From assembly GCA_022729235.1 (NCBI GenBank), contig JALDAJ010000001.1, forward strand, positions 672,001 through 736,000: a stretch of DNA of 64,000 nt, written 5' to 3'. The notes beneath the pieces are model-generated. The model did no database searches and had not been told where the DNA came from. It saw only the letters and a program-made list of their open reading frames with translations. Both the position numbers and the translations under genes were made by a program. The stretch is from Candidatus Nanohalarchaeota archaeon (lineage in GTDB: Archaea > Nanohalarchaeota > Nanosalinia > Nanosalinales > Nanosalinaceae). Below, one piece after another: positions 28,465-59,225 of this stretch (position 1 is its first letter; every line of letters starts with the position of its first letter).

Positions 28465-28578
28465 ATGCTGGCGCTGGGTTCGAAACTGCGAGGCAGTTTC
28501 TGTACCATAAGAAAATCTATGATTTTCGAGGATTTGAACCCGAAGCTCGCCGTATCGGGAGCTTCTCTCATCAAATCC
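28465..28578. repeat. Split duplicate of the tRNA-Ser 3' end with three inserted hairpins
   Basis: ATGCTGGCGCTGGG (28465) and GGATTTGAACCC (28530) copy tRNA positions 28595-28618; hairpins at 28481, 28510, 28541. Confidence 0.8.
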
Positions 28579-28595
28579 GCAGTTTAGGCGTGAAA

Positions 28596-28684
28596 CGCCG
28601 GCGCTGGGATTTGAACCCAGGAGGGCCGTCACAGCCCAGCAGATCTCGAATCTGCCGCGTTCAACCAGACTCCGCCACGCCGGC
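28596..28684 (-). tRNA. tRNA-Ser(CGA)
   Basis: GCCGGCG acceptor, GCAGA-TT-CGA-GA-TCTGC, long variable arm, G73. Confidence 0.95.
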
Positions 28685-28800
28685 AGAAACTTCTGGAAGT
28701 TTCATCACCAGAAACTGCGTTCCGACTTCGCCTCCAGCAGCTTTCAGAATTAGGAGCTGTCGTGAAGCTTTTATTTAGTTGAGTTCCCGTTATCTGGTTT

Positions 28801-29463
28801 ATGGAGTACGGTTCTGTAGTTTTTGATATGGACGGAGTGATCCTTGACTCTATGAGGGACCATTCCTGGGTTTATGCTGCCGTTGAAAGGGTGGTGCAGG
28901 AAAAAGGTGTTGAAAGAGAGCTTGATAGAGGTGAAAAGGCGGCGATACTTGGGGAGCAGGGTTTTGACCGTTGTGTTCAGTCTTGTGAGAAAATCGGTCT
29001 TGATCCTGGTGATGTCTGGACAGAGATTTGCCGCGCCACGACCCGTGTAAGAAAGGAGAGGATAGAAAGCGGGGAGATGACGCTTGTGGACGGTGCTGGA
29101 GAGATGATTAAAAAGATACACGCCCAGGAGAGGAAGATGGCGCTGGTGAGTAACGCGCCGGATGAAGCTGTCAGGTTCGTTGTGCGACATTTTGAACTGG
29201 AGCGTTTTTTCGACTTCTATATAGGGTTAAGAGACTTCGAAGACCTTGCCTCGAAGAAGCCTGCGCCGGACCACCTTGAGGTCGCGAAGGCAGAGCTCGG
29301 GAGAAACCCGTACCTGTACGTCGGGGATGCTGAGTCAGATGTTATAGCAGCTCACAGGGCGGATATGGACGCGGCGTGGCTGCATCCTTCTAAGGAGTCT
29401 GACGTGAAGGCGGATTACGAACTTAAAGCACTGAACGCGCTGGAAAACGTGATTGATACGTGA
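28801..29463 (+). CDS. HAD-superfamily phosphatase
   Basis: FDMDGV, VSNA, KPAP, VGD..SD. Confidence 0.92.
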   Translation: MEYGSVVFDMDGVILDSMRDHSWVYAAVERVVQEKGVERELDRGEKAAILGEQGFDRCVQSCEKIGLDPGDVWTEICRATTRVRKERIESGEMTLVDGAGEMIKKIHAQERKMALVSNAPDEAVRFVVRHFELERFFDFYIGLRDFEDLASKKPAPDHLEVAKAELGRNPYLYVGDAESDVIAAHRADMDAAWLHPSKESDVKADYELKALNALENVIDT

Positions 29464-30113
29464 GCTACGACGGCGTGATTTTCGACTTTGACGGCGTCCT
29501 TCTAAACTCTGGAGAGGATGGCTTTAAATGGGCAGGGAAGGCGAGAGAAGAGAAATCCCGTGAATTAGGCTACGACTACAGTTGTACAGCAGGATACATT
29601 TTTGCCTCTAGTTCATTCGAGGAGATGAAGAAAAAAGTGGAGCAGAGCCCGATGAGCTGGCAAGAGTTCATGGAGGTTGAAAAAGCTGCGGCACAAAGAA
29701 AGCTGGAACTTGTGAAGAGAGGACAGATGGAGCTTTTTCCTTCCGCCAGAGATGTTCTGGAAAATATAGGGGTTCCGAAGGCGGTTGTAAGCAACGCTTA
29801 CGGGGACATAGTTGACGGTATAGTGAGACAGTTCGGGATAGACGAGCACCTCGTGTACTGGACTGCGCCGAGACTGGATGATATCAAGAGATACCACAGC
29901 CTGGCGAAACCAGAGACAGACATGCTTGACCGCGCGATGAAAGAGATTGGTTCCCGTGACGTGATAATGGTCGGGGATAAGAAGTTTGATGTTCAGGCGG
30001 CGAAAAACGCGGGTATAGAATCTATTCTGGTCAACAGTTACGGCGAAGATATCGATGCGGATCCTACTTATAGGGTTGAAAGCCTGGAAGAAGTACTCCG
30101 GATAGTCGGTTGA
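29460..30113 (+). CDS. HAD-superfamily phosphatase (tandem paralog)
   Basis: FDFDGV, VSNA, KPE, VGD..FD. Confidence 0.92.
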   Translation: MSYDGVIFDFDGVLLNSGEDGFKWAGKAREEKSRELGYDYSCTAGYIFASSSFEEMKKKVEQSPMSWQEFMEVEKAAAQRKLELVKRGQMELFPSARDVLENIGVPKAVVSNAYGDIVDGIVRQFGIDEHLVYWTAPRLDDIKRYHSLAKPETDMLDRAMKEIGSRDVIMVGDKKFDVQAAKNAGIESILVNSYGEDIDADPTYRVESLEEVLRIVG

Positions 30114-30148
30114 CAGCGTTAAAAATTTTCGCCGACGTTTTTCAGATT

Positions 30149-31114
30149 ATGACAGACGAAATCTGTTCAAAGTGTGATGCGGACGCGGTGATTCACCGCG
30201 AATATGAGGGCCGCTCGCTCTGCAAGAAGCACTTTTCTATAGATGTGAACAAGCAGGTCAAGAAGACTATAAGAGAAGGAGACCTGGTCGAGTCAGGTGA
30301 CACGATAGCGGTCGGTCTCTCCGGTGGGAAAGACTCCGCGGTTCTGCTTGAACAGCTGGTAAAGGTCTTCGGTGAGCGACCGGATATCGAAATCGTTGGT
30401 GTGTCCGTCCACGAAGGGATCGATGAGTACCGCGACGAGTCGATAACAGCTGCGCAGGAACTGTGTGATGAACTCGGTGTGGCGCTTCACGTCGGGCGCT
30501 ACAGTGATTACTACGATCTCAAGATGGACGATGTCGCGGACGCGGGAGAGCGTGGGAACTGCACCTACTGCGGTATCTTCCGCCGCGACCTGTTGAACAA
30601 GTTAGCACGCGAAGTGGATGCGGACAAGATAGCTATCGGTCACAACCTGGATGATGAGGCGCAGGCTATAATGATGAATTATATCAAGGGAGACACGAGG
30701 AGGCTGGCGCGCGTAGGTTCGAGAACGGACCAGGTGTCGCACGACAAGTTCGTGCCGCGTATCAAGCCTCTTCTTGACGTCAGGGAGAAAGAAATCGCGC
30801 TTTACTCCCGGCTCCATGACTTGGGTGTCATCGACCGCTGCCCGCATGTTCAGGAGGGGACTCTGCGTCCCATGGTGAAGTCGTTCCTCAACAAGCTGGA
30901 GAGCCAGATGCCGGGTATAAAGCATTCCATCGTTTCCCAGGGTCACGACCTCTCCTCGCTCGTTGAAGAGAATTTTGAGTTCGAGGATTCGGAAATCAAG
31001 GAATGCGAGAGATGCGGTGAGCCGTGCTCCGGCGGTCTCTGTAGGAAGTGCCAGTTGCTTGATGATATAAAGAAGGCGGCGGACGAGAGCGAAGAACACG
31101 ACTTCGAGAAATAA
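30149..31114 (+). CDS. tRNA 2-thiolation protein TtuA/Ncs6
   Basis: N- and C-terminal zinc fingers, SGGKDS, CTYCG, GHNLDD. Confidence 0.92.
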   Translation: MTDEICSKCDADAVIHREYEGRSLCKKHFSIDVNKQVKKTIREGDLVESGDTIAVGLSGGKDSAVLLEQLVKVFGERPDIEIVGVSVHEGIDEYRDESITAAQELCDELGVALHVGRYSDYYDLKMDDVADAGERGNCTYCGIFRRDLLNKLAREVDADKIAIGHNLDDEAQAIMMNYIKGDTRRLARVGSRTDQVSHDKFVPRIKPLLDVREKEIALYSRLHDLGVIDRCPHVQEGTLRPMVKSFLNKLESQMPGIKHSIVSQGHDLSSLVEENFEFEDSEIKECERCGEPCSGGLCRKCQLLDDIKKAADESEEHDFEK

Positions 31115-31170
31115 ACCGGGGCGACGGATGTTTTTTCATTATAAAAGAATTGACGGACCGTTGAATCCGG

Positions 31171-31683
31171 TTGACTATGGATAGAAAGTTGATTCAGGTG
31201 ACCCTTGCTTTCGTGGTCATCGCTGGAACAGTTTCCGCCCAGTCCCAGGATGCCGCTGAAAACGCTGTTCACAAGGTCGGGATAGTATCGGACCACGGTC
31301 CGCAGGTATTCCAATGTGAGCCCGGCAGTATTCCGGAGACTTCGCTCCTGGATAAGATGGAGAGCGAGGTAAAGAAGTTCTTTGATGTCGAAGAACAGGA
31401 GGAACCCGACCGCTGTAAGTACTGGTCACGTGAGTACGCTGTCCCTCAAGATGAGAACACGACTGAGTACAGGATAGGGGTCGTGAAGTACGAGAACAGG
31501 AGTGAAGAAGCACTTCTGGTCGCTGAGAGAGATGGTAGCGGAGTGTCCTACGCGGATGTCCTTGCTGACGGTGAGAGTGTGGGAGCTACTGGTGCTGACG
31601 GTATGTTCGAGCTTGATCTAGTGAATGTTTCCCGGGTAGAGGTCAAGACGTCCGACGGGAAGCTGGGGCTGGAAACTAGGTAG
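31171..31683 (+). CDS. Secreted hypothetical protein (paralog A)
   Basis: Signal peptide; aligns with 31824-32318. Confidence 0.75.
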   Translation: MTMDRKLIQVTLAFVVIAGTVSAQSQDAAENAVHKVGIVSDHGPQVFQCEPGSIPETSLLDKMESEVKKFFDVEEQEEPDRCKYWSREYAVPQDENTTEYRIGVVKYENRSEEALLVAERDGSGVSYADVLADGESVGATGADGMFELDLVNVSRVEVKTSDGKLGLETR

Positions 31684-31823
31684 CGGAGAACTCTCCCTCC
31701 AACCTTCATTTCTTTTTTCTGTATATTCTATTTAAGGTGTTGTAACTCTTAGGACAGGATATAATCGCCTCTCCGAATAAAAGGGTTTTAATAAGGATTC
31801 TAAATACTGGGCTAAGGTGTTAT

Positions 31824-32318
31824 TTGATGAGGCAAAAGTCCGTCGCCCTAGTCGCTGGTTTGATAGTAGCCTTTACTTTCCACGCCACTGCGGCGCCGGC
31901 AGATGACTCCGGGGAGGTGGTGGAGCCGGAGGTCTTTGAATGCGATTCTGATGATGTGCCTGATACCTCTATAACCGAGAAGTTCCGGAATGACGTGCTG
32001 AGCTTACTGGACCCTGAAGGTTACGACGAGAGATATCCTGATGAGTGCAAGTCGTGGGCTGAAGAGTACAGGGTCGGGAGCGGTGAAAGCAACAGCAAGT
32101 ACGCCGTGGAAGTTATGAAGTACGCCGGCGATGAGTGGGACGCGGTTATCATGGTGGAGAGAAACGGTGGCGGCGTCCGGTACGCAAACGTCGAGCTGGA
32201 CGGTGAAAGTATAGGAGCCACGGATTCACAGGGAATGCTTAAGACAGAACTGCCGGAAGATTTCAGCATCACAGTCAATACTTCTGACGGAGAATTCACG
32301 CTGGAAGGTACCAGGTAG
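31824..32318 (+). CDS. Secreted hypothetical protein (paralog B)
   Basis: Signal peptide; shares PxVFxC...PDxCKxW..EY and DGESxGAT...TSDG with paralog A. Confidence 0.75.
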   Translation: MMRQKSVALVAGLIVAFTFHATAAPADDSGEVVEPEVFECDSDDVPDTSITEKFRNDVLSLLDPEGYDERYPDECKSWAEEYRVGSGESNSKYAVEVMKYAGDEWDAVIMVERNGGGVRYANVELDGESIGATDSQGMLKTELPEDFSITVNTSDGEFTLEGTR

Positions 32319-32377
32319 AGTCTTATACCGGTTTAACCGGGGTCAATAAAAGCGTGGATTTAATACATAGTAATATA

Positions 32378-33340
32378 ATGAAAGCTATCGTTTTAGCCGG
32401 TGGACACGCCACACGACTCTGGCCCGTGACGAAGGACCGGGCGAAACCTCTCCTACCTCTAGGCGACAGACCTATAATAGATTTCATCGTGGAGGAGCTG
32501 GAGGAAGAGGTTGACGACATAATCGTATCTACTAACGAAAAATTTGCCTCCGACTTCGAGAAGTATATCGAAGACTTCGAACGTGAAGCCCGGGTGGTAG
32601 TCGAGAACCAGGGCTCCGAGGAGGAGAAGCCCGGGACAATCGGCGCGATAATCCAGCTGATAGAGAAAGAAGGTATCGACGAGGATCTGCTGATTGTCAA
32701 CGGTGACAACTACCTCGGGTTCAGTTTTTCAGAACTCCTTGAGTTCTGCCGACACAAGGAGGCGCCGGTGAACGTGGTATATGATCTTGAACGTCTTGAA
32801 ATGGCTTCATCCTTCGGGGTTGTTGACGTTAACGGTGACAGGATAGTTGACTTCGAGGAGAAGCCGGAGGAGCCTCCTTCGACCCTGATATCTACAGGTG
32901 TTTACTTCTTCCCGTCGCACCGTGTATCGATGTTCAAACAGTACGAGGAGCACTTCAAGGATTCCGAGGTTCCTGCGGATGAGTATCTCGACGAGCCCGG
33001 AAGACTGCTGGAGTGGGGTAAGGACCAGGCAGAGATATTCGCGTTCTCGTTTGACGGGGACTGGTTCGATGTCGGTACGCCCGAGGGTTACCTTGAGGCG
33101 CTTGACGCGGTGATGGACGGGAATATTGTCCATGGCGAGACAGACGGGTGTGATATCGGTGAGAATGTTTTGGTCCTGCAGAATGCGGAGCTTGAGAATG
33201 TTGTGATAGAGAACAGTATCGTTTTCCCTGAGACCAGGATCAAGGATTCCGAGGTCAGGAACTCGCTAGTCGACAGCCACTCCGAAGTGGTTGACGCGGA
33301 TATAAACGATGCTATCCTCGGGAAGCATACCTCGATGTAG
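32378..33340 (+). CDS. Sugar-phosphate nucleotidyltransferase
   Basis: KAIVLAGGHATRLWP...KPLLP, EEKP, WFDVGT. Confidence 0.92.
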   Translation: MKAIVLAGGHATRLWPVTKDRAKPLLPLGDRPIIDFIVEELEEEVDDIIVSTNEKFASDFEKYIEDFEREARVVVENQGSEEEKPGTIGAIIQLIEKEGIDEDLLIVNGDNYLGFSFSELLEFCRHKEAPVNVVYDLERLEMASSFGVVDVNGDRIVDFEEKPEEPPSTLISTGVYFFPSHRVSMFKQYEEHFKDSEVPADEYLDEPGRLLEWGKDQAEIFAFSFDGDWFDVGTPEGYLEALDAVMDGNIVHGETDGCDIGENVLVLQNAELENVVIENSIVFPETRIKDSEVRNSLVDSHSEVVDADINDAILGKHTSM

Positions 33341-33542
33341 GTTCAGTGTGATATGGGTCGGGAGACACGTATCCTGTGATTGACTGGTAGACTTGCTGAG
33401 CGGAGTTGTAAACACGTTTTACAGCGTTATTCTCTCCGTATAAGACTTCTGAACAGCAACCTGTAGATGACTCCTCGCTATCAGGGACGGCTGCGTCAAG
33501 TCCTTCCTCCTGGAAGCGTTCAAGGTAGTTTTTCAGTGACAT
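33312..33542 (-). CDS. Small hypothetical protein
   Basis: ATG ORF following the upstream gene; overlaps the convergent gene. Confidence 0.4.
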   Translation of the reverse strand: MSLKNYLERFQEEGLDAAVPDSEESSTGCCSEVLYGENNAVKRVYNSAQQVYQSITGYVSPDPYHTEPTSRYASRG

Positions 33543-33568
33543 ACACTTTTTCTGGAACTGAACCTTTA

Positions 33569-34285
33569 TCAGAACTGTTTTACTGCGGTGTTATACTGCA
33601 TAGAATTTTCAGCAGTACCGAGATACCCGTCTATCTCTCCCCAGCTTTCTTCGAAGTCAGTAAGGTATCTGTCCTGGAACTGTTGGTAATTGAAGCCGGT
33701 ATCTAGGTATCCCGTCTGGCTGAGTTCCTGCGCCCCGTAGCTGAATTCTCTGCCGCTGGTGTAGGCATCCATGACTTCCTGTTCCATCTTCTCTATATCC
33801 TCCATCAGCTCCGTTTCCGGGTCGATACCTTTCTGCTTCAGCTCCCGTTCCCGCCTTTCTTTTTCATGAGGGTAGGAGCTCGGTAGGTCCTGCGGTAGTA
33901 TCTTGTCGATTATCAGCTCTACCTCGCCCTCCATGTCGCTAACTGTCCGACCGCTCATCTCCTTCACGAACTCTTCGGAGACACCGAACCTCTGTCTCAG
34001 CCAGTCGGAGAGTGTGTTGTTGAACTGCTTGACGTGCAGGAGCTCGTGTAGGACGGTCCTTCTCTTCTCTACTTCAGGTATTCGGGAAAAGCGGTGCCGG
34101 TTGAAGACCAGTTCCGTCCTTGCCCCGTTGAACCGGGTCTGTGCGAGAATATCTTGTGGCAGGTAATCTATCTCAATGCGGTCTATCTCCGATCCTGCTT
34201 CCAGCCCGAACTCTTCCGACACGCGGTTTACTCTGTCCTGTACGCCCGCGGTGGGGTTCTTTGAGTCGGCGGTTACTCCTATCAT
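33569..34285 (-). CDS. HExxH zincin-like protein
   Basis: TVLHELLH followed by MEGEVE. Confidence 0.65.
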   Translation of the reverse strand: MIGVTADSKNPTAGVQDRVNRVSEEFGLEAGSEIDRIEIDYLPQDILAQTRFNGARTELVFNRHRFSRIPEVEKRRTVLHELLHVKQFNNTLSDWLRQRFGVSEEFVKEMSGRTVSDMEGEVELIIDKILPQDLPSSYPHEKERRERELKQKGIDPETELMEDIEKMEQEVMDAYTSGREFSYGAQELSQTGYLDTGFNYQQFQDRYLTDFEESWGEIDGYLGTAENSMQYNTAVKQF

Positions 34286-34290
34286 CGGGA

Positions 34291-35151
34291 CTAGACAGCT
34301 GTGTTTTCTATATTTTCCAGTCTTTTGTCAAGTGATGGGTGTGTTGAGAAGAACCTTGTCATCTTGTCGCCGGAGAACGGGTTCTCTATGAAAAGGTTGG
34401 AACCGGTCTCCTGGACCTGTGATGCCTTGTACTGGGAATTCTTGTTGGCGGAGCTTATCTTCCTGAGTGCGTCCTGGAGCCCGTTTTTCTGTCCGTGAAT
34501 CCTGACTGCGTGCGAGTCGGCGCGGAACTCCATGCTCCTGGAGATTGCGAACCTGATGACCATGGCGATTATAGGTACGAGGATGAAGAACGCAAGTGAT
34601 GCGACGGCTTCACCTCTCCTCCGGTCGCCCGAAAACATGGCGCCCCAGAAAGCCAATCTTGCGAGCACCGCTACCGCTCCTGCGATTGTAGCGACCGACG
34701 CATTGATGAGTGTGTCGCGGTTCTTGATGTGCGCGAGCTCGTGTGCAACTACGCCCGCGATTTCGTCTCTGTCGAGATGCTGCATCAGTCCTTCTGTCAG
34801 GCAGACCACACCTTTCTCGGGCGACCTGCCTGTTGCGAATGCGTTCGGTACCTGCATGTCGTTCTTATAGAGCCGGGGTTTCGGTATGTCCGCGTTCTCC
34901 GCCAGCTCCTCAAGCATTTCGTGATACTCAGGGTAGTCCTCCTCCGACATCTCTTCTGCGCCGTACATTTTCAGGACGATGCGGTCGGAGAACCAGTAGC
35001 TCCCAAAGTTCATCAGTCCTGCGAAGAGCAGCGCGATAACCATTCCAGCTTCTCCTCCTAGAGTGTATCCTGCGCCTAGAAAGACGGCTGTAAGTACTGT
35101 TAGAAGCCCGAATACTTTGAAGTTAGCTTTTACACCCTGTGCTGTTACCAT
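34291..35151 (-). CDS. htpX: Zinc metalloprotease HtpX (M48)
   Basis: PNAFATGR, HELAH, EFRAD, STHP. Confidence 0.95.
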   Translation of the reverse strand: MVTAQGVKANFKVFGLLTVLTAVFLGAGYTLGGEAGMVIALLFAGLMNFGSYWFSDRIVLKMYGAEEMSEEDYPEYHEMLEELAENADIPKPRLYKNDMQVPNAFATGRSPEKGVVCLTEGLMQHLDRDEIAGVVAHELAHIKNRDTLINASVATIAGAVAVLARLAFWGAMFSGDRRRGEAVASLAFFILVPIIAMVIRFAISRSMEFRADSHAVRIHGQKNGLQDALRKISSANKNSQYKASQVQETGSNLFIENPFSGDKMTRFFSTHPSLDKRLENIENTAV

Positions 35152-36466: not shown

Positions 36467-36573
36467 CTGTGAAGAGAACCCCGCTTAAATAAAATATGGG
36501 TTATTGCAGTCTAACACAGTTGATTTGAGGCAATGATGGGTTTAGAACAGTGTAAAAGGAAAAGTAAAAGTAG

Positions 36574-36688
36574 TCTGGCAGCGTCCCGAGCCTTCCGCCG
36601 GTAAGGCAGTACTACTCGGATCGCTTGGGGACTTTACTTCCGTGTTCGGAATGGGTACGGGTGTTGCCCCCCCGCTATGGCCGCCAGT
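36574..36688 (-). rRNA. rrf: 5S rRNA (stand-alone)
   Basis: CTGGCGGCCATAGC...CACCCGTACCCATTCCGAACACGGAAGTAAAG...AGTAGTACT...GCTGCCAG. Confidence 0.95.
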
Positions 36689-43923: not shown

Positions 43924-44070
43924 CTTGGTCACCCGTGATGTGGCTGTCTGCCGCATTAAATAGGCATTACTGTGGTACAGTGTTACTGTCAAAGTCGGAA
44001 AATCTAGAAATTTATTTGGAAACTCGGAACGTTTTCTGGGCATATCAAATCTGTGGAGAGGAAACTTCGT

Positions 44071-44144
44071 TCCCGACCCCCCGATTTGAACGGGGGACAA
44101 GTCGCTCTACAGGCGACCGCTCTGCCAGACTGAGCTAGGTCGGG
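44071..44144 (-). tRNA. tRNA-Tyr(GTA)
   Basis: C1-G72 CCCGACC acceptor, GTCGC-CT-GTA-GA-GCGAC. Confidence 0.95.
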
Positions 44145-44220
44145 AAATGGCTTTCAGGCGTGATCGACCGGTCAGACCAGAAACCTGTATGGTTTCGACC
44201 TGAGCTAGGTCGGGAAATGG
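44130..44220. repeat. 21-bp direct repeat of the tRNA-Tyr 5' end flanking a hairpin
   Basis: CTGAGCTAGGTCGGGAAATGG at 44130-44150 and 44200-44220. Confidence 0.9.
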
Positions 44221-49239: not shown

Positions 49240-49329
49240 ATGGTAGAATTCGAGACACGCATATTCGAAAGGAATATGCTTCGATTGAATTCTATCGAAC
49301 AACGTGATAAAAATGGTAGAATTCGAGAC
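49240..49329. repeat. 17-bp direct repeat of a gene start flanking hairpins
   Basis: ATGGTAGAATTCGAGAC at 49240-49256 and 49313-49329. Confidence 0.9.
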
Positions 49330-49588: not shown

Positions 49589-49784
49589 GGCTTGAAGACA
49601 GGAAAAATAGGCTCATAAAGAGCCGGGATCAACAAGTCCCGGAACTCCTAGAAAGCTTCAGAGAAGCTTTCCTGAGCAGGGTCTCGGATACATCTCACAA
49701 ATGCATCGACGACCTTACCATAAACAACCGACTACAACCTTAAATAACAAGCCAGGGACTAGGTCCGTACACAGATAATAGGCT

Positions 49785-49952
49785 AGCCCCCGGTGGGATT
49801 TGAACCCACGGCTTATCCCTAGCTTGCTTCGCGCTTTTTATCCGGCATCCTGTTGGAAGCCGGACTCGAAACTCTGCGAGTTTCTGCGCCTCGCAACTTG
49901 TGAGTTGCTCGGTTACAAGGGGATCGCTCTAGCCAGACTGAGCCACGGAGGC
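49785..49952 (-). tRNA. tRNA-Thr(TGT) with 93-nt intron (49821-49913) at 37/38
   Basis: GCCTCCG acceptor; ATCCC-CT-TGT-A[intron]A-GGGAT; CTTG/CAAG BHB central helix. Confidence 0.9.
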
Positions 49953-52333: not shown

Positions 52334-52612
52334 TTATTCTCCGTCTTCACCGGTTTTCTGTTCCAGCTTCCTTGCGAGGAAGTGGTCTTTCTCTTCGAGT
52401 TCTCTTATCGACTCGATTGCGAACAGGTAACCTGTACCTATCATCACCAGTCCGAGAACTGCGGGAGCCAGGTCAATCAGACCTACTAGCGGTAGTATGT
52501 TGGATATAACGAGTAGTACTCCCAGCGTGAACAGGGCGAAAGATACTGCTATCTCCTGGTTTATGCTCATCTTTTTGAGTCCGAATCGGTCTTTTTCTGT
52601 CATTCGAATCAC
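52334..52612 (-). CDS. Small membrane protein in the oap operon
   Basis: Two TM segments, directly downstream of oapC. Confidence 0.7.
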   Translation of the reverse strand: MIRMTEKDRFGLKKMSINQEIAVSFALFTLGVLLVISNILPLVGLIDLAPAVLGLVMIGTGYLFAIESIRELEEKDHFLARKLEQKTGEDGE

Positions 52613-52620
52613 CGAGAGCG

Positions 52621-53004: not shown

Positions 53005-53008
53005 GATT

Positions 53009-53392
53009 TCACTCCTCCATCTTTGCCAGGAATGAAACGGTATCTGGTTCTTCCTTGATTTTTTCCATGACGCGGGAGTTGCCTACTATCGTTAATCCCT
53101 GTCGGTACTGCTCGTTGAGAACTCTCTTGTAGAGGATGCTTTTTGCCTTTTCAATCCTGGAATCGCCTCCATCGAACCCCATGAATTCCACGCCCGGGAA
53201 ATCCTCGTCTGCCTTTTCTACAGAGTTCTCGATAAGTTTTCGTTTTTCTTCCGGAGTCCATCCTTCTTCGAGTACCAGCACGGAGTTGTCTTTAACCTTC
53301 TCAAGAACAAATTCCAGCTTGTCTGTGAAGGCTTTCTCGTCTGAAAGCCTCTCCTTCGAGAGAAATTCTATTGTGACCCCGTCATCTGTCAT
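53009..53392 (-). CDS. oapB: OapB (DUF2073)
   Basis: VLVLEEGWTPEE, FPGVE, LTIVG. Confidence 0.88.
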   Translation of the reverse strand: MTDDGVTIEFLSKERLSDEKAFTDKLEFVLEKVKDNSVLVLEEGWTPEEKRKLIENSVEKADEDFPGVEFMGFDGGDSRIEKAKSILYKRVLNEQYRQGLTIVGNSRVMEKIKEEPDTVSFLAKMEE

Positions 53393-54019
53393 CTAACTCA
53401 ACCTTTCGACTATTTCCTCATAAAGTTTGTCAATATTATTGCCTTCTTTCGCAGATATCTCTATTACAGGGTGCTGCGGGAAAGCATCGCGCACTCTTTG
53501 TGCATCTGCTTCTTCGAGGTCTATCTTGTTCGCTACCACCAGTATAGGTATGTCCTTTGCCTCCAGGTTACCGATAATTGTGACGTTAACCTGGGTGTAC
53601 GGATCCTCTGTAGCATCAAAAATCACCAGGCACGCGTCCACGTTGTCAAGGTACTTTATCGCCTCAACGATTCCTTTCGTTGCCTCTTTGGCGCGACCCT
53701 TCGCATCGTCCTCCTCTATACCGTGTTCAGTGAAATCCTTGAAGTCTACATTCGTTGAAATACCAGGCATGTCAAGCAGGTTCATCTCCACCGATTGACC
53801 ATCTGCCTCTATCTCGACTTTTTCTTTTTTCTCTACGATACGGGTCTCGTGAGGTACCTCGGAAACATTACTCATCTCTTCCCCGGTTATATCAAGAGAT
53901 ATCTGGTTCGCGAGAGTAGACTTTCCGGCGTTAGGAGGGCCATATATGCCTATAGAGAGGTCATCTTTTTCCGAATCACTGAAGAGACTGTTGAGAAGTT
54001 CCCTGAGCCTTTTGATCAT
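53393..54019 (-). CDS. oapA: Era-like GTPase OapA
   Basis: GIYGPPNAGKSTLAN, PHETR, DMPG, ANKID. Confidence 0.92.
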   Translation of the reverse strand: MIKRLRELLNSLFSDSEKDDLSIGIYGPPNAGKSTLANQISLDITGEEMSNVSEVPHETRIVEKKEKVEIEADGQSVEMNLLDMPGISTNVDFKDFTEHGIEEDDAKGRAKEATKGIVEAIKYLDNVDACLVIFDATEDPYTQVNVTIIGNLEAKDIPILVVANKIDLEEADAQRVRDAFPQHPVIEISAKEGNNIDKLYEEIVERLS

Positions 54020-54118
54020 TTTGACACCAGCTAATGGTAAATCAGGTCTTTAAGTATAAAAACTATTTCCTCTCTTTCACCCGGGAATAATAAAGAAATG
54101 ACACCTAAAAATGGCAAC

Positions 54119-54556
54119 ATGAAGACTGAAAAAGGCGTGATAATTGTCGCGTACAAGCGGAAGAACGCTCCCCGCTACGTTGTCCTTAAGAGGAAGAAGA
54201 ACTGGGAAGGCTGGGAAACTCCTAAAGGACACCTGGAGGATGAGGGCTACGAGGAAACGGTTAAGGAGGAGATGCAGGAGGAGGCAGGCATCTCTGGGGA
54301 CGAGATACTCGCTATAGAGGATATGGAGGAGACAGTCTTGTGGGAGTACAGTCAGGATGGTGAAGATTTCCGGAAAGAGTACCGTGCATTTCTAGTAGAA
54401 GTAGATGAGGGCGCACATGTTGATGTGTCGAGAAATCCCTGCGATGAGCACGAACACGGCTACTTCTTCAGTTTCCGTGACGCCAGCGAGATGGTGACTC
54501 ATGATAACAACCGCGAGCTACTGGAGAAGGCTCATGAGATGGTAACTGGAGAGTGA
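54119..54556 (+). CDS. NUDIX hydrolase (Ap4A hydrolase-like)
   Basis: WETPKGHLE...EEMQEEAGI. Confidence 0.85.
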   Translation: MKTEKGVIIVAYKRKNAPRYVVLKRKKNWEGWETPKGHLEDEGYEETVKEEMQEEAGISGDEILAIEDMEETVLWEYSQDGEDFRKEYRAFLVEVDEGAHVDVSRNPCDEHEHGYFFSFRDASEMVTHDNNRELLEKAHEMVTGE

Positions 54557-54594
54557 GCTGAACCGATTTAAACATGGCGTGTATTCTAACAGGT

Positions 54595-54846
54595 ATGACA
54601 CAGCCAGACGAGATGCTGGAAATTTACCAGTTTGAAGGATGTCCTTACTGCTCAAAAGTCAGACAGAAGATGACCGAACTAGGTCTCGACTTCATCGCGA
54701 AGAGTGTTGATCCTCACGGTGACAGGCAGCGTGTAAAAGAGGTCAGTGATCAGACAGGTGTCCCTGTCCTCGTAGACCCGAACACCGATACAGTCATGCC
54801 AGAGAGCGACGACATCGTGGAGTATCTGGAAAAACAGTACGAATAA
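54595..54846 (+). CDS. Glutaredoxin/GST-N-like protein
   Basis: GCPYCSKV, VPVLVD, ESDDIVEYL. Confidence 0.9.
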   Translation: MTQPDEMLEIYQFEGCPYCSKVRQKMTELGLDFIAKSVDPHGDRQRVKEVSDQTGVPVLVDPNTDTVMPESDDIVEYLEKQYE

Positions 54847-54877
54847 CTTTTAATTTCTTATTCCGCAGTAGCAACGT

Positions 54878-55324
54878 ATGCCTGATAGTAGACTCTTGAA
54901 AGAACTCGATATCTCTCCGGCTGAACTGGCTGAGATGACAGAAAGCGAATATCGGAACACTCTTCTTAGACATGATTATCCTTTAACCGAGCCTGTAATA
55001 GTATCTGTTGAGGACTCTATAGCAAGGGAAAGAGAGAAGCTTGAAAGTTTTTGTGCGCCGTATTCAGGTGCGGAAAAATGGCTTTGGATAGGTGAAGAGA
55101 TACTTCCTCGCTGGGCAGAAGTTCTCTCCGAACTCGATGAAAGAGTAAATTACGCGGATTCAAGTGGACTAGAGACAGAATACAAAGGAGTATTGTCCCC
55201 GCGGCTCAAGAAGGCTACAGGACTGATGAAGCGTCTGGAGGCAAATCCGGTAGACTATGATATATCGGAGTTTGTGGATAGACTCCGTGGAATGGAAAAC
55301 ACATATGAAAGGAAATTAAAGTAG
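54878..55324 (+). CDS. Hypothetical protein
   Basis: 148-aa ATG ORF. Confidence 0.6.
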   Translation: MPDSRLLKELDISPAELAEMTESEYRNTLLRHDYPLTEPVIVSVEDSIAREREKLESFCAPYSGAEKWLWIGEEILPRWAEVLSELDERVNYADSSGLETEYKGVLSPRLKKATGLMKRLEANPVDYDISEFVDRLRGMENTYERKLK

Positions 55325-55351
55325 TTCTGTCTCTACTGAAGGACTTGGAAA

Positions 55352-55487
55352 TGGACCGGCCCAGATTTGAACTGGGGATCTCCACCTGTCTGAATTCCTC
55401 CGCATAGCGGAGATTTCAGATAATAGAAGCTGGTTAAGGCTTCGAGTCTATCAGGGTGGTGCTATAACCAAGCTAAGCCACCGGTCC
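55352..55487 (-). tRNA. tRNA-Ile(GAT) with 61-nt intron (55388-55448) at 37/38
   Basis: GGACCGG acceptor; CCACC-CT-GAT-A[intron]A-GGTGG; CTGA/TCAG BHB helix. Confidence 0.9.
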
Positions 55488-55582
55488 GTGCTAGCTAGTA
55501 ATAGTTGAATGCTTGGAAAGTATTTTTAATGCATTGGCAGAGAGTCCGTGATTTTTATTTGAGGATTTAAAATACTGTTTCT

Positions 55583-56053
55583 GTGGGACTTGAAGAATTA
55601 GAAGAAGATATCAGGCAACTTGAGCAGGATCTTGAAAGTCTTGTTCCCCAGAAGAAGGCAGCTTCGGCTAAACTGTTTCTAGATCAGTTCATGCCTCTCG
55701 CTATACTGATGCTAACTTTGATGATTGCCTTCCATATTTTCATCCCAGTAAGCGATAGCATGGCTGTCGCTGTCAGCTACATGAACGTGGCTATCCTGTT
55801 CTTCTTCAGCGCCCGGTTCACGCTTGCTTTCATGCTGGCGGATTCGCATAAAGGATTCCTCCGTGAACACTGGTTTGACGCGCTGCTTGTTCTACCAGCT
55901 TTTGCATTAGTCAAGGATATACGTCTGCTGCTTGCCCTAGAGTCCAGGACAGAGGAACGCGCTGTTATAGGCACTATTTTCGCGAGGAATACGACGGTTG
56001 CCAGCCAGTTAACCAAGATAATTACCTGGATCAGAAGAATTCTCAGGTTCTAA
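55583..56053 (+). CDS. Membrane protein (ion-channel S1-S4-like)
   Basis: TM helices, FLREHWFDALLVLP. Confidence 0.6.
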   Translation: MGLEELEEDIRQLEQDLESLVPQKKAASAKLFLDQFMPLAILMLTLMIAFHIFIPVSDSMAVAVSYMNVAILFFFSARFTLAFMLADSHKGFLREHWFDALLVLPAFALVKDIRLLLALESRTEERAVIGTIFARNTTVASQLTKIITWIRRILRF

Positions 56054-56056
56054 AAA

Positions 56057-56240
56057 CATATCTCTGATATGGGTCCAACGGGATTTGAGACGAAAACAAG
56101 TTTTCTTAGTCAAATCACGTTTAACCAGCACGAAGTGATGGGCCCAACGGGATTTGAATTCGAAGAAGCAAGTTCTTCTGCAATCAAATCCCGGGAGAAA
56201 GCATATCTTTGATATGGGCCCAACGGGATTTGAACCCGCG
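56057..56240. repeat. Tandem copies of the tRNA-Lys 3' end separated by unique hairpins
   Basis: ATGGG(T/C)CCAACGGGATTTGA at 56069, 56138 and 56214. Confidence 0.92.
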
Positions 56241-56349
56241 ACGCCCGGCTTTCTTTGAAGCTTGGCTGACGCCTTGCTTCTAGGTCCTCGTCCCTTGCGG
56301 GACTTGAGGCTTAAAAGGCCGGTGCTCTGCCAGACTGAGCTATGGGCCC
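56215..56349 (-). tRNA. tRNA-Lys(TTT) with 61-nt intron (56251-56311) at 37/38
   Basis: GGGCCCA acceptor; CCGGC-CT-TTT-A[intron]A-GCCGG; CTTT/AAAG BHB helix. Confidence 0.9.
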
Positions 56350-56402
56350 ATGCGTATGGGTAATTGTTGTAGAATACCTGAGGTTTTTATACTGTCCGCC
56401 GA

Positions 56403-56618
56403 TTACACGGTTTCCTGTTCGAAGTCGCCGTACTGGATGTTCTGTATCGCGTGGTACGGGATGAACATGTGTTCGGACTGCACTTCCTGTACAAGTTCTT
56501 CTTCGTTGAATATCCAGGGGTTTTCGATTTCCACTCCGTTATCTACTCTATCTACCTGGTCTTCGTCTTCCAGGAGGAAGTCTCCGGCATCTGTTAGAAC
56601 TATGGCTGAGAATTTCAT
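56403..56618 (-). CDS. Small hypothetical protein
   Basis: 71 aa, operonic with rpl37e; FIPY.AIQNI. Confidence 0.65.
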   Translation of the reverse strand: MKFSAIVLTDAGDFLLEDEDQVDRVDNGVEIENPWIFNEEELVQEVQSEHMFIPYHAIQNIQYGDFEQETV

Positions 56619-56627
56619 GTCGGATAT

Positions 56628-56780
56628 TTACGGCGATGCTTCGTCGAAGTCCTCACGTTTGGAGGTCTTCCCGAATCCGCAGGATGCGCACACTTTCTTT
56701 GTGAGGTGGTATGCTTTCTTTCCGCAGCGTCTGCATTTGCCGTGGGTTTTCTTGTTTCCGACTCCAAGTTCTGATGCCAT
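56628..56780 (-). CDS. rpl37e: 50S ribosomal protein L37e
   Basis: Manual translation [42 protein letters not shown]; canonical position after Sm. Confidence 0.95.
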
Positions 56781-56799
56781 TGTTAGTCACCTGTGAGGT

Positions 56800-57033
56800 T
56801 TATTCCGGGCTGACCACGATGACATTGTCTCCACGTACAAGCAGCTTACCGTAGTCTGTTCTGCCGTCATCGTTGTTCCTTGAGGCGTTTTCAAGCCACA
56901 TGTTGAGGTGGAGGTCGAAAGCTCTGAGTTTTCCTGTAACTGTTGAACCGTCCTTGAGTTCTGCTATTACTTGGTCGCCTTTCGCCCTGTCTAGGACGTC
57001 TAGTGGTCTTGTACCGTCATCGTTGTTTCCCAT
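56800..57033 (-). CDS. Sm/Lsm protein
   Basis: RPLDVL, GKLRAFDLHLN, VRGDNV. Confidence 0.95.
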   Translation of the reverse strand: MGNNDDGTRPLDVLDRAKGDQVIAELKDGSTVTGKLRAFDLHLNMWLENASRNNDDGRTDYGKLLVRGDNVIVVSPE

Positions 57034-57150
57034 AGAAAATACACCTGTATCCTCGGTTTCCGGAACAACTTATATAAACCTACTGAGAGTCCTCGAGAGA
57101 GGAGGGTGGGCGAGCGACTTTTTATAAAGTTTAGAGGTGATTCACGGTTT

Positions 57151-57528
57151 ATGGCAATCTGGCACAGACGCTCATACATGAAGAAGACTGGTGGAAGTAC
57201 TAGACCTTATAGAAAGTCTCGTAAATACGATCTCGGGTCTGAGTTCTCGGAACCTGAGGTAGGCGAGAAACGTGTAGAGCAGAGACGTGTCCGTGGTGGA
57301 AACCAGAAGAATGTTGTCAGGCGTTCGGAGACTGTGAATCTTGCTGTTGATGGAGAAGTAGAGCAGGTTGAAATCGAGTCTGTGGAAGACAATCCTGCGA
57401 ACCCGAACTATGTGAGACGTTCGCTTTTGACTAAAGGAACGATAGTTGAGACAGAGGAAGGTCGCGCAGAAATTACTTCTAGACCGGGTCAGGACGGAGT
57501 TGTAAATGCGAGACTGACTGACGAATAG
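57151..57528 (+). CDS. rps8e: 30S ribosomal protein S8e
   Basis: KKTGG, RVRGGN, NPANPNYVRR, TSRPGQDGVVNA. Confidence 0.96.
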   Translation: MAIWHRRSYMKKTGGSTRPYRKSRKYDLGSEFSEPEVGEKRVEQRRVRGGNQKNVVRRSETVNLAVDGEVEQVEIESVEDNPANPNYVRRSLLTKGTIVETEEGRAEITSRPGQDGVVNARLTDE

Positions 57529-57681
57529 CCTGTGTTTATATCTTGTCTCGCATTTAGTCAAACGCAAAGCTCGTTGAATAAGGGCTTCTTAGTCAACTGT
57601 GTTGGAATACTGGTTGCTCGAACGGTATCTCGTGAGCCATACAGATTTATACAGTAAATAATAAAGAGAGAGGATAGGTTA

Positions 57682-57804
57682 CTAGCCCTTCACCATTTCA
57701 CGTACCCGGTGGAAGGGTCTGGCTAGTGTGGAAATCACTGAACTCTGTTCGAAGTTGACCGGAATCTGTCGGCCGGCCTCATCCGCAAAATCCGTTGCCA
57801 TCAT
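57682..57804 (-). CDS. Putative 40-aa peptide
   Basis: MMATDFADEAGRQIPVNFEQSSVISTLARPFHRVREMVKG*, preceded by SD-like GGGAGGTGG. Confidence 0.4.
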   Translation of the reverse strand: MMATDFADEAGRQIPVNFEQSSVISTLARPFHRVREMVKG

Positions 57805-57828
57805 GCTGTTTTCCACCTCCCAACCCTT

Positions 57829-58065
57829 TTATACCATTCCCTTTGAGGCGTTTATCCGCCGAATAATAGCGTTAGCAACGCTGTCGACCTCTTTTTCCGC
57901 TATCCTTAGTTCTTCCAGAGCTTCTCGTTCCTTTTTAGGCAGGTAATAGAGGTTGTTCTCGTACTTTGCGAGTTTCATCAACCAGTTATTCGCGATGCGT
58001 GGTTTATAAAGAAACGAATAGTTCTCCGTTAGTTCCGCTATTCCGGTAGAGTGTATTTCCGCCAC
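57829..58065 (-). CDS. Small hypothetical protein downstream of cdc6
   Basis: Overlaps the cdc6 end; start uncertain. Confidence 0.4.
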   Translation of the reverse strand: MAEIHSTGIAELTENYSFLYKPRIANNWLMKLAKYENNLYYLPKKEREALEELRIAEKEVDSVANAIIRRINASKGMV

Positions 58066-59051
58066 CGTCCTTCTCCCTCGGTCTCTATCAGCCTGTAGTG
58101 GTCCATCTTGTTGAGATATTTCCGTAAGGTTCTTTCCACCTTAGGGTCATCAATTTCTTCACTATAGCGTTCGTATAACTCGCCGGGCTGTATCTCACCC
58201 TCATCCTGGATGATGTCGTAAAGAGCTTTCTGGTGCCGGTTGAGCATGTCCAGTGACTTTGACTTGTTCTGTTTCTCCGCCTTGGGTAGTGACTTCTCGA
58301 CTATTCCCTCGGTGATTTCCTCTTTATCACCTGACTCGGCGTCTTCCGCTGCTATCCGTAGAGAGTTGATCGCCACCCTTGCGTCTCCATCCGCCCGGTT
58401 TGCTATCCGGTGAAGAAGTGAGGTGTCGATAACACCATCGTATAACCCCCAGTCCCGCCGATCTTTCAAGATATCAACCAGTTCCTCAGTCGAGTAGGAG
58501 GGAAAGTGTACCTCTCTCGTACCTTCAAGCGAGGAGCGTATTCTATCATCTACATCGTACAGCGCGGTCTCTTTGTTCGCTATCATTATCAGCGCCACAT
58601 TCTCACGTGCGAAGTCGTAGAGAATCCTTTCCTGCTCTATCTGGTCGACCTCGTCCAGGACGACAACCGTCTTTCTCTTAATCGCTTTTTCCCTGAACTT
58701 ATCCACGAGTTCATCGGTAGGGGTGCCGGTCCTGTGTATCAGGTTGACACCGAGGTCCTGCAGCAGGTTGTAGTAGACCTTGAAACGGGAAGGATATCTC
58801 CAGCAGTTGACACTCCCCATCACGACCTCGGAGGAATGTTTCTGCATCTCGTCTATCACGTACTCTGCCATGGTCGTCTTCCCGGTCCCGGGCGGTCCGT
58901 AGAGAAGCATGTTTCTCGGAGAATCGTTCTCAAGTAGCGGCTCTAGGTTCCTCTTGATCTCATGTATCTGGTTATCTCTGTGCACCATCCTCTTCGGGAT
59001 GAATCCTTCCCGGAGTACTCTTGCGTCCTCTATAACCGATCGCCGTCTCAC
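58038..59051 (-). CDS. cdc6: Cdc6/Orc1 replication initiator family protein
   Basis: FIPK..HRD, GPPGTGKT, VNCW, VLDEVD, F..Y..EEL, GDAR, winged-helix C-terminus. Confidence 0.92.
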   Translation of the reverse strand: MRRRSVIEDARVLREGFIPKRMVHRDNQIHEIKRNLEPLLENDSPRNMLLYGPPGTGKTTMAEYVIDEMQKHSSEVVMGSVNCWRYPSRFKVYYNLLQDLGVNLIHRTGTPTDELVDKFREKAIKRKTVVVLDEVDQIEQERILYDFARENVALIMIANKETALYDVDDRIRSSLEGTREVHFPSYSTEELVDILKDRRDWGLYDGVIDTSLLHRIANRADGDARVAINSLRIAAEDAESGDKEEITEGIVEKSLPKAEKQNKSKSLDMLNRHQKALYDIIQDEGEIQPGELYERYSEEIDDPKVERTLRKYLNKMDHYRLIETEGEGRWRKYTLPE

Positions 59052-59225
59052 GGAAACACTATTCTTCCGCTAGTTTAAAAGAAGAATTATGGCGGCGTTC
59101 CGGTAGTTCCGCGACTGGTTACCGCACGAACAGATGTTCGTGCTTTGAGCAGGTCAACTATTACGAGTAGACTGCGACGCTCGGTCGACACGCAATATAA
59201 GACTCCGGCGGGTGCCAAAGAGAGA

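Follow-up and report, generated by a model that had tools for sequence, protein, structure and literature searches.

Hairpins at the locus

The DNA analysed here, hereafter the window, is a stretch of 64,000 nucleotides (nt) from a Candidatus Nanohalarchaeota archaeon (assembly GCA_022729235.1; window G000:C1:672001-736000), part of a single-contig genome of 1,027,595 bases; this genome under study is G000, and G001 is a congener. An earlier note on the window had described short hairpins with the asymmetric closure 5'-CG-stem-loop-stem-CT-3', lying outside protein-coding sequence and tied to tRNAs and target duplications, as a dispersed insertion system served by an enzyme encoded elsewhere. 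All 15 hairpins that it named fold in the way described: 12 show the CG-stem-loop-stem-CT closure and three are near-variants. Their position outside protein-coding sequence is confirmed, the overlap with genes of a codon-usage caller being 0.00 for 15 of 15. The features concerned are listed below in window coordinates.

28470-28594, minus strand: pseudo 3' part of tRNA-Ser that follows the real tRNA-Ser(CGA) downstream, with a convergent hairpin doublet splitting its T-loop
28481-28501, plus strand: family hairpin CGAAACTGC-GAG-GCAGTTTCT, one arm of the doublet
28510-28528, minus strand: family hairpin CGAAAATC-ATA-GATTTTCT, the other arm of the doublet, fitting the 19-nt core pattern
28541-28566, plus strand: hairpin GAAGCTC...GAGCTTC of the tRNA-Ser 3' module, with the same stem in six genera and a variable loop
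28595-28685, minus strand: tRNA-Ser(CGA)
28685-28704, no strand assigned: near-variant hairpin AGAAACTTC..GAAGTTTCA, abutting the tRNA-Ser 5' end
44069-44145, minus strand: tRNA-Tyr(GUA)
44130-44220, minus strand: 21-nt direct repeat (44130-44150 and 44200-44220; genome 716130 and 716200) around the hairpin 44179-44197, the repeat spanning the leader and tRNA positions 1-15
49240-49329, plus strand: 17-nt direct repeat (49240-49256 and 49313-49329), itself the start of an open reading frame (ORF); between its copies are a CGCA...TGCT sub-type hairpin, 49258-49280, and part of the repeat in inverted form
49650-49672, no strand assigned: near-variant hairpin between the end of an ORF and tRNA-Thr
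49785-49952, minus strand: tRNA-Thr(UGU) with a canonical-position intron of 93-95 nt, in which 49867-49885 and 49892-49909 are hairpins that both read AG..CG in RNA sense
55352-55487, minus strand: tRNA-Ile(GAU) with an intron of 61-62 nt, containing the hairpin 55425-55444
56070-56214, minus strand: two tandem insertion modules after tRNA-Lys, with a 21-nt repeat at 56138 and 56214
56215-56349, minus strand: tRNA-Lys(UUU) with a 62-nt intron, holding the hairpins 56256-56281 and 56289-56304
59123-59144, plus strand: hairpin CGCACGAAC-AGAT-GTTCGTGCT, of the CGCA sub-type, in the 174 nt that separate two minus-strand genes

At 55425-55444 the stem has 5 bp and the loop 8 nt; this weak hairpin is probably a chance occurrence. 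Each of the two tRNA-Lys modules comprises a spacer, the heptamer GATTTGA, which complements the T-loop, a family hairpin (56091-56106 and 56161-56179) and a new copy of the last 19-21 nt of the tRNA. Within the tRNA-Lys intron, the hairpin 56289-56304 forms part of a CCTC-G...C-TT-GAGG module that is common to five other tRNAs. The introns of 62, 62 and 95 nt in three tRNAs of the window were found at the canonical position by both ARAGORN and Infernal.

Definition of the hairpin unit

A scan of the whole genome for perfect stems of at least 6 bp with loops of 3-8 nt gave 1477 hairpins. The top two of 48 closure classes were CG..CT (75) and its reverse complement AG..CG (64), the next class having 42 members. 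Within the fully non-coding segments (106 kb, genes being taken from the codon-usage caller), 75 of 352 hairpins carry this closure or its reverse complement, and 51 of the 75 have a GAA...TTC stem base. Thirty dinucleotide-preserving shuffles of the same segments yielded 4.0 ± 2.4 closures (maximum 11) among 145 ± 12 hairpins, and 0.7 ± 0.8 with the GAA...TTC base. With 75 observed against a shuffle maximum of 11, the closure is real and far above chance, and the enrichment over shuffled sequence on which the earlier note depended is borne out. A cruder ORF mask gave a similar result, with 66 of 347 non-coding hairpins in the closure class and 13 in the next. An effect of chance or composition could be argued from the A/T-rich stems, the many GAA codons and a mild closure excess in coding sequence under the crude mask (73 of 1130), but it is refuted by the shuffles and by a reversed control of the core pattern, described below, that finds 0 matches in 70 genomes; its probability is negligible.

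The stems share more than their closure. GAA is the commonest stem start, in 101 of all 1477 hairpins and in 66 of 386 non-coding ones, and 53 of these 66 are flanked by C..T or A..G. The profile of flank and stem reads (T)C-GAA(A/G)(A/C)(T/C)...TTC-T(G): the first four to five stem pairs are conserved as GAA(A/G)(A/C), and the loops lean to RRA, being mostly AGA, GGA, AAA or GAA in the orientation of the pattern. The exact pattern CGAARAYCNNNGRTYTTCT, with 16 specified positions, has 17 copies in G000. The description of the family as differing stems defined by structure is thus replaced by one with a conserved sequence core. In a comparison set of 70 genomes from the order, which is the same as the set for the whole phylum, this pattern is found in 46 and its reversed control in none. 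A second sub-type has a GCA...TGC stem base, as at 49258, 49892 and 59123 of the window.

The unit is ∼17-25 bp long with a loop of 3 to 5 nt, and the CG...CT closure represents a conserved non-complementary flank. Neighbours of opposite orientation form six convergent doublets and one divergent pair. Convergent pairs have a CG..CT unit first and an AG..CG unit 3-10 nt further on, making up a doublet of 50-60 bp with the ends TCGAAA...TTTCGA. Within it the C and T of one unit can pair with the G and A of the other, which explains what the earlier note had seen as an odd mismatch below the stem.

Genomic setting

Of the 139 closure-class hairpins of the genome, 13 are inside tRNA genes, where all of them occupy introns or the acceptor end, 24 are no further than 300 nt from a tRNA, 41 are at other intergenic sites, and 61 were called coding by the first mask; among the last group, those with the strict core lie mostly at the far 5' end of over-extended ORF calls. 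The proposed tie to tRNAs holds in so far as 37 of the 139 are in or no more than 300 nt from the 35 detected tRNAs, a zone amounting to 2.5% of the genome. It is not specific to tRNAs, since junctions of ribosomal-protein operons are equally typical. The sites away from tRNAs are mainly junctions of housekeeping operons, namely S17-L14, L14-L24, NusG-L11, L11-L1, PheS-PheT and the region upstream of RpoB', so that the flanking genes encode L14, L24, L1, L11, NusG, RpoB' and PheS/T. The same two-hairpin cassette upstream of start codons also occurs in public sequences of Candidatus Nanohaloarchaea and Nanohalobium.

ARAGORN detects 35 tRNAs genome-wide, 20 of them with introns of 30-203 nt, and Infernal detects 30. 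These are small sets, and some isoacceptors may be absent or have been overlooked.

Filled and empty sites among relatives

The L14 and L11 genes with their flanks were each compared in 30 genomes of the family. The S17-L14 spacer holds a family hairpin in two of the 30, the L14-L24 spacer is filled in five, with arrays of 1, 2, 2, 4 and 4 units, and the L11-L1 spacer is filled in six; in all remaining genomes the unfilled junctions are compact, at 0-15 nt. The empty orthologous sites looked for in the earlier note thus exist, only 2-6 of 30 related genomes being filled at any of these spacers.

Filled and empty states occur within genera. Both L14 junctions are filled in G000 and empty in its congener G001. 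At L11-L1, G047 and G048 are filled and their congener G007 is empty, as is G053 beside its filled congener G052; at S17-L14, G055 is filled and its congeners G052 and G053 are empty; at L14-L24, G009 is filled and its congener G046 is empty. Depending on the spacer, the empty congeners include G001, G046, G048, G007 and G053. Likewise, G000 has and G001 lacks the 21-nt duplication and accompanying hairpin upstream of tRNA-Tyr, and the tRNA-Ile introns of these two genomes are unrelated in sequence and length. Coding DNA of G000 and G001 is ∼70-75% identical, and therefore the filled and empty differences are not very recent.

Shared copies and flanking duplications

Self-comparison of the non-coding DNA of G000 revealed stretches shared between unrelated loci. 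The first hairpin of the tRNA-Lys flank, together with its own flanks, is identical in 20 of 20 nt to a hairpin of the PheS-PheT spacer. The flanks of tRNA-Lys and tRNA-Trp have 31 nt in common at 93.5%, a homologous insert following tRNA-Trp; the regions upstream of L14 and RpoB' share 37 nt at 89%, and the inserts after tRNA-Gly and tRNA-Cys 28 nt at 96%. An element of ∼80 nt in the tRNA-Ile intron of G001 also occurs upstream of tRNA-Pro(GGG) in G000. Among introns, those of tRNA-Cys and tRNA-Thr(GGU) share 61 nt at 93% and those of tRNA-Met and tRNA-Ala 65 nt at 85%. Judged from the sequences, tRNA genes exchange intron segments.

Six tRNAs (Lys, Leu, three Arg and Thr) carry a homologous intron module, ggtCCTCG-TTCTCC..GGAGAA-CTTGAGG, directly after the anticodon (window 56289-56304; genome 235860, 268425, 298108, 411962 and 820597). 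Downstream of tRNA-Gly(UCC), at genome 822713-822860, are two fragments matching the tRNA-Gly(GCC) 3' end, each preceded by a family hairpin; the tRNA-Gly end seems either to have travelled with the insert or to have been exchanged between both tRNA-Gly genes. Two other tRNA-Ser genes of G000 have a 147-nt flank in common at 97%.

Exact direct repeats of at least 11 nt surround 11 of 60 family clusters, compared with 5 of 222 clusters of other hairpins and 2 of 300 random non-coding sites (p = 3e-5 and 7e-8, respectively). On these numbers the target duplications proposed in the earlier note are real, although for a subset of clusters only. The repeated sequence is a tRNA 3' end of 16-21 nt (Gly, Cys, Lys, Trp, Pro), a tRNA 5' end of 13-21 nt (Gln, Tyr), an ORF's initial 17 nt (window 49240 and 49313) or, at L14-L24, an 18-nt segment with the gene's stop, Shine-Dalgarno and start region. 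After tRNAs a module recurs in which the tRNA end is followed by a spacer, a 7-9-nt complement of the T-loop, 3-7 nt, an AG..CG hairpin, 0-3 nt and the tRNA end again. Doublets in pseudo-tRNA T-loops and at ATGA junctions appear, by eye only, to be flanked by duplications of ∼3 nt (TCC, TGA).

The module at the 3' end of tRNA-Ser consists of GGGATTTGA, 4-5 nt, the hairpin GAAGCTCC..GCGAGCTTC, then GGGTTCAAATCC and a second copy of the tRNA 3' end (loci L003, L004, L006, L008 and L010, and the window). It occurs without the doublet in G009, G005, G018, G012 and G004, has the doublet at the same place in G003, and is missing from the congener G001; G005 and G004 have a third copy of the tRNA-Ser 3' end.

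Tyrosine recombinases that integrate into tRNA genes could leave such duplications as attachment-site (att) scars, with the hairpins as unrelated passengers. A gene for a 461-residue tyrosine recombinase (genome 862445-863827; L222:1442-2827, minus strand) does adjoin tRNA-Thr(GGU) in G000, a position suggestive of an integrated element, and homologues are present in 32 of the 70 related genomes, with up to nine copies in G054 and G055. A 55-nt partial copy of tRNA-Pro lies 830 nt from the intact gene, G005 and G004 have tandem arrays of tRNA 3' ends, and PMC3293823 describes how DNA has integrated into tRNA genes of archaea, accompanied by scattered fragments of tRNAs. Only 60-90 nt separate the repeats, however, and a family hairpin is always beside the second copy. 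The same architecture is found at protein-gene starts, in the 18-nt repeat at L14-L24 and the 17-nt repeat at 49240/49313, the copies in introns and operons are left unexplained, and 21 of the 46 motif-positive genomes have no homologue of the recombinase. We regard att scars as an improbable source of the duplications.

The partial copy is of tRNA-Pro(UGG), covers the D arm through the 3' end, is downstream of the intact gene and has a doublet in its T-loop (genome 158700-158810 versus 159627-159699).

Operon junctions and coupled mini-ORFs

At the filled operon junctions inspected by eye, the old start codon is kept upstream in nine of nine cases. This start opens a mini-ORF of 17-45 codons that runs through the hairpins and ends in a TGA or TAA stop overlapping or abutting the new start, as GTGA, ATGA or TAATG. 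An automatic test found such a coupled mini-ORF in 13 of 21 hairpin-bearing co-directional spacers of up to 135 nt as against 28 of 197 spacers of 45-135 nt that have no hairpin (p = 4e-6); the eight spacers that failed mostly have weak hairpins without the GAA core. Inserts would thus keep the old Shine-Dalgarno sequence and start codon at the junction, and translational coupling would survive insertion because the mini-ORF through the hairpins stops on the new start codon. We read the pattern as a survivorship filter, in which stable inserts are tolerated only if ribosomes reach the downstream start.

DNA repeat or RNA element

Our preferred interpretation, held with moderate confidence, is that the hairpins are a selfish palindromic DNA repeat, similar to repetitive extragenic palindromic (REP) sequences and miniature transposable elements with inverted repeats (MITEs), which has been gained and lost at the DNA level across this archaeal phylum. 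The behaviour of inserted DNA that the earlier note attributed to a dispersed, non-autonomous family is seen in the filled and empty sites of congeners, in 19-37 identical bases between unrelated loci and in the flanking repeats, and we infer that copies arise by insertion. They would persist only where harmless, namely at operon junctions, in the leaders and trailers of tRNAs and in pseudo-tRNA ends, and in canonical tRNA introns, which are cut out by the splicing endonuclease.

The chief competitor is a function in RNA, with the hairpins serving as protein-binding or processing sites for cistron ends, in Shine-Dalgarno sequestration, in translational coupling or in pre-tRNA maturation. Several features are those expected of such elements. 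In operon spacers orientation follows position: CG..CT units lie 2-25 nt after the upstream stop and AG..CG units 1-19 nt before the downstream start, the co-directional spacers containing 21 and 32 of them, respectively. The 3' arm of the start-proximal unit often includes GGTGAT, followed by TTTCGA and then GTG or ATG. The coupled mini-ORF in 13 of 21 spacers, the RRA loop bias and the conservation of the core across the phylum, the retention of the tRNA-Ser module in six genera, and the single orientation of the tRNA-intron copies (11 of 11) point the same way. The argument of the earlier note that either orientation occurs, and hence that recognition is at the DNA level, is weak in the light of this positional rule and of the tRNA introns, in which all orientations agree.

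RNA function does not account, however, for the variation of congeners at the same housekeeping junctions, where 24-28 of 30 genomes have no hairpins, nor for flanking duplications and inverted target copies, which have no rationale at the RNA level. Both loop orientations occur within single transcripts. The stems are also without G.U pairs: 66 non-coding GAA stems are perfect Watson-Crick helices compared with ∼20 having one mismatch, and a sense-strand G.U excess was sought among the mismatched hairpins and not found, in a small sample of 20 imperfect hairpins, 10 with a defined transcript direction, of which three were of G.U type. Nor did Rfam 15, at the gathering score, return any family on the hairpins, its matches in the window being confined to tRNA, 5S rRNA and signal recognition particle (SRP) RNA. 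A DNA-level origin is favoured because of the perfect stems without G.U excess, the two loop orientations per transcript, the duplications and the filled and empty sites; RNA elements as the primary explanation seem to us unlikely. Some copies may nevertheless have acquired RNA-level roles, the tRNA-Ser 3' module being the best candidate.

The RNA genes that Rfam identified in the window are seven tRNA matches, an archaeal SRP RNA (8729-8998) and a lone 5S rRNA gene (36573-36688). Four known RNA motifs were tried on the hairpins by eye and rejected: a kink-turn (no tandem G.A in stem register), a C/D-box small RNA (UGAUGA-like words, but D' and D boxes missing where the spacing would require them), a hammerhead core (no helix II) and split or permuted tRNA halves (5' halves to match were not seen).

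A more specific RNA proposal is that the hairpins belong to bulge-helix-bulge motifs, or to non-canonical introns and split tRNAs, that the tRNA splicing endonuclease recognises. In archaea such a motif has two 3-nt bulges, one on each strand, with a 4-bp helix between them, where exon and intron meet. In favour, many of the hairpins have a 3-nt bulge (GCA) in front of them together with an outer helix of 2-3 bp, CTC/GAG; G000 has one tRNA_int_endo gene, and only 35 tRNAs were detected. By eye, however, the splicing motif of tRNA-Thr and tRNA-Lys is made from other bases, CUUG/CAAG and CUUU/AAAG by the anticodon stem. The hairpin stems, at 6-10 bp, have at most one adjacent 3-nt bulge and no second one, and no motif with a 4-bp central helix could be drawn by eye for the T-loop inserts or the flank modules. 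The endonuclease frame is 198 residues with one catalytic domain, which we take to be the strict homotetramer type, and most copies are in mRNA spacers. We consider this proposal very improbable.

Several observations weigh against a selfish DNA repeat. The hairpins of tRNA introns are all AG..CG in the RNA sense (11 of 11), although these are not independent cases because several of the introns are homologous. Duplication lengths range from ∼3 to at least 21 nt and match no single transposase. Several genera have the same spacers filled, which calls for hot spots of insertion or else for a large number of precise losses. In the tRNA-Ser module, conserved in at least six genera, the stem does not vary and the second tRNA end changes along with the first; this conservation and co-variation look like function or gene conversion. 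Contigs from three DNA sequencing runs of one study contained no filled and empty alleles, so no insertion within a population was caught. To these must be added the outcome of the enzyme search: profile searches of G000 found no Y1_Tnp (PF01797), RVT_1, Cas_Cas1, DDE_Tnp_4, DDE_3 or rve, only a sub-threshold match to TnpB, and no DDE_Tnp_1 above cut-off, only a C-terminal fragment of 44 positions. Homologues of the 461-residue recombinase are only weakly tied to the motif, being present in 25 of 46 positive and 7 of 24 negative genomes (p = 0.08, a value that ignores kinship and genome completeness).

Three joints at tRNA-Lys in the contigs of the DNA runs were considered as candidate alleles and rejected; the pieces have less than 95% identity and short sides, and were read as tRNA-Lys genes of other organisms.

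Mobilisation

The screen for a mobilising enzyme covered nine Pfam families and one protein, and among the families tested in G000 and the 70-genome set no candidate emerged. Y1_Tnp occurs in 4 of the 70 genomes and the motif in 46, and neither Y1_Tnp nor TnpB exceeds the cut-off in G000, which speaks against the link to HUH/RAYT enzymes drawn in the earlier note; TnpB is above cut-off in 14 of the 70, G000 not among them. The co-occurring enzyme that the note expected did not appear either as a Y1 transposase or as a reverse transcriptase, and the association with a tyrosine recombinase is the weak one given above. G000 encodes a single tRNA splicing endonuclease and two tyrosine recombinases.

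The only transposase trace found in G000 lies in an AT-rich non-coding stretch of 1.3 kb at genome 31000-32360, which contains the C-terminal 75 residues of an IS4/IS5-like DDE transposase. Around this fragment (genome 31204-31332) no ends matching the hairpins and no link to them were found.

If the hairpins are a DNA repeat, two mechanisms may be envisaged. A trans-acting enzyme encoded elsewhere might recognise the folded hairpin, which we think a tenable though tentative proposal. A somewhat less probable route, also tentative, is that the hairpin provokes template switching or break repair that copies in another unit; such events would explain variable duplications and inverted target copies. 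We weigh template switching almost like the trans-acting enzyme because of the variable duplication length, the inverted target copies, the very small shared unit and the lack of transposases.

Comparison with known systems

REP, BIME and REPIN sequences are palindromes of 20-40 bp with an asymmetric unpaired end, many per genome and variable between strains, according to PMC3733652 (see also PMC3116915 and PMC3337134). The hairpins resemble them in being short multi-copy palindromes with an asymmetric tag, in their intergenic position within operons and in their inverted doublets with a short spacer. They differ from REP and REPIN sequences in their tag, C...T around a GAA...TTC base; a terminal GTAG or CGTC was looked for in the flank profile and is absent, (T)C...T(G) being found instead. 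They also differ in their host, an archaeal phylum, in their A/T-rich units, in the lack of a RAYT/Y1 gene, and in insertions that have flanking duplications and bring a Shine-Dalgarno sequence and start codon. A REP of the RAYT-mobilised kind would be accompanied by a RAYT (Y1 HUH transposase) gene, usually with copies of the repeat on either side; with no RAYT and no GTAG tag, this is not a RAYT-mobilised REP. The CGTC-tagged REPs are a palindromic superfamily that, according to PMC3733652, "apparently lack a dedicated transposase". The hairpins are likewise palindromic repeats for which no transposase of the families tested was found, and they differ in sequence and host range.

Rickettsia palindromic elements (RPEs) and Neisseria Correia elements are selfish palindromes of 100-150 bp that survive by keeping frames or expression intact, the RPEs sitting in frame inside genes. 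The units described here, in contrast, are ∼20-60 bp, lie at gene junctions and make separate coupled mini-ORFs. Work on tRNA-intron transposition in Thermoproteales has reportedly found homologous intron segments among different tRNAs. Disruption of archaeal tRNA genes, with tRNA fragments duplicated beside inserted DNA, is described in PMC3293823. Both features, homologous intron segments among tRNAs and duplicated tRNA fragments by inserts, recur in G000. The inserts in those studies are, however, a 1.8-kb recombinase-bearing element or whole introns with splicing motifs, whereas the unit here is a 20-nt hairpin that has colonised mRNA spacers too.

The ends of IS200/IS605 elements and integron attC sites are strand-asymmetric hairpins recognised as folded single strands, without target duplication; the present hairpins have duplications, there is no Y1 transposase, and no integron integrase context was evident. 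An integron would also have its own type of tyrosine recombinase, an attI-cassette array and R''/R' core sites; no cassette array and no RYYYAAC/GTTRRRY cores were seen by eye, G000 having its two tyrosine recombinases. Co-occurrence with TnpA/TnpB, as would be expected of an IS200/IS605-derived (PATE-like) MITE, is not borne out by the counts for G000 and its relatives. A MITE of a DDE transposon would have terminal inverted repeats, a target duplication of constant length and a parent IS sharing its ends. The doublets have the ends TCGAAA...TTTCGA and, by eye, duplications of ∼3 nt (TGA, TCC), other modules have repeats of 11-21 nt, and the DDE fragment of G000 has no matching end.

Among the papers listed for such repeats, nanohaloarchaea are nowhere mentioned. 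We did not find descriptions of an archaeal DPANN host, of tRNA-intron colonisation, of long duplications of tRNA ends or of self-supplied coupling cassettes. A text search of the papers available gave no match for the 17-mer in any of six spellings.

Wider distribution of the 19-mer

An exact scan with CGAAAATCRRAGATTTTCT over one genome per species (185,579 species) gave matches in at least 119 stretches, compared with ∼17 expected by chance for the whole collection. Among the matches listed, the archaea are nanohaloarchaeal metagenome-assembled genomes (MAGs), Woesearchaeota, Methanofollis, Methanosarcinales and Poseidoniales, and the bacterial MAGs belong to Bacillota, Lachnospiraceae and other Clostridia, Gastranaerophilales/Melainabacteria, Synergistetes, and Lentimicrobiaceae and other Bacteroidota. 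The exact 19-mer CGAAAATC-RRA-GATTTTCT is multi-copy in unrelated bacteria and archaea (loci L082-L161; genomes G070-G083), where it is usually the tip of a longer, lineage-specific hairpin. In 8 of these 14 foreign genomes the whole-genome counts of HGAAAATCNNNGATTTTCD are 124, 73, 61, 56, 34, 24, 23 and 13, with 0-1 for the reversed control. All 24 copies listed for a Methanofollis MAG have the C..T flanks, and the maximum of 124 copies is in one Bacillota MAG.

The setting of these copies gave no lead to a vehicle or an enzyme. Their neighbours are ordinary unrelated genes, Y1_Tnp is present in 5 of the 14 genomes compared with 6 of 14 unrelated controls, and Rfam found nothing on the hairpins at 14 foreign loci. 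A scan of viral contigs found only nine stretches with the 19-mer and no sign of a viral vehicle. In a Bacillota MAG the hairpin is present in 52 of 53 copies of a ∼300-nt repeat, and therefore no empty site can be defined there.

In a Poseidoniales MAG (L144:1150-1400), three tandem copies of ∼64 nt with the hairpin stand just past the stop codon of a gene, the later copies decaying.

Possibly, though doubtfully, C-GAAAATC-NNN-GATTTTC-T represents a cross-domain superfamily of asymmetric mini-hairpins of ∼19 nt that spread without an element-encoded transposase and build their own coupling cassettes in compact genomes. Such spread might depend on a host enzyme of wide conservation that has extruded hairpins or cruciforms as its substrate, or on template switching that the hairpins provoke.

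Implications

If the hairpins are a selfish DNA repeat, archaeal genomes of the ∼1 Mb symbiont type carry active or recently active miniature palindromic inserts, through which tRNA introns become longer, tRNA ends are duplicated and ribosomal-protein operon junctions are remodelled. The operon cases would illustrate how inserts can be rendered harmless by bringing their own Shine-Dalgarno sequence, start codon and overlapping stop codon. The family would offer a testable case both of REP-like movement without a dedicated enzyme and of the growth and segment exchange of archaeal tRNA introns. Should the identical 19-mer in unrelated bacteria and methanogens prove to belong to one family, it would point to an undescribed mobilising activity or horizontal vehicle.

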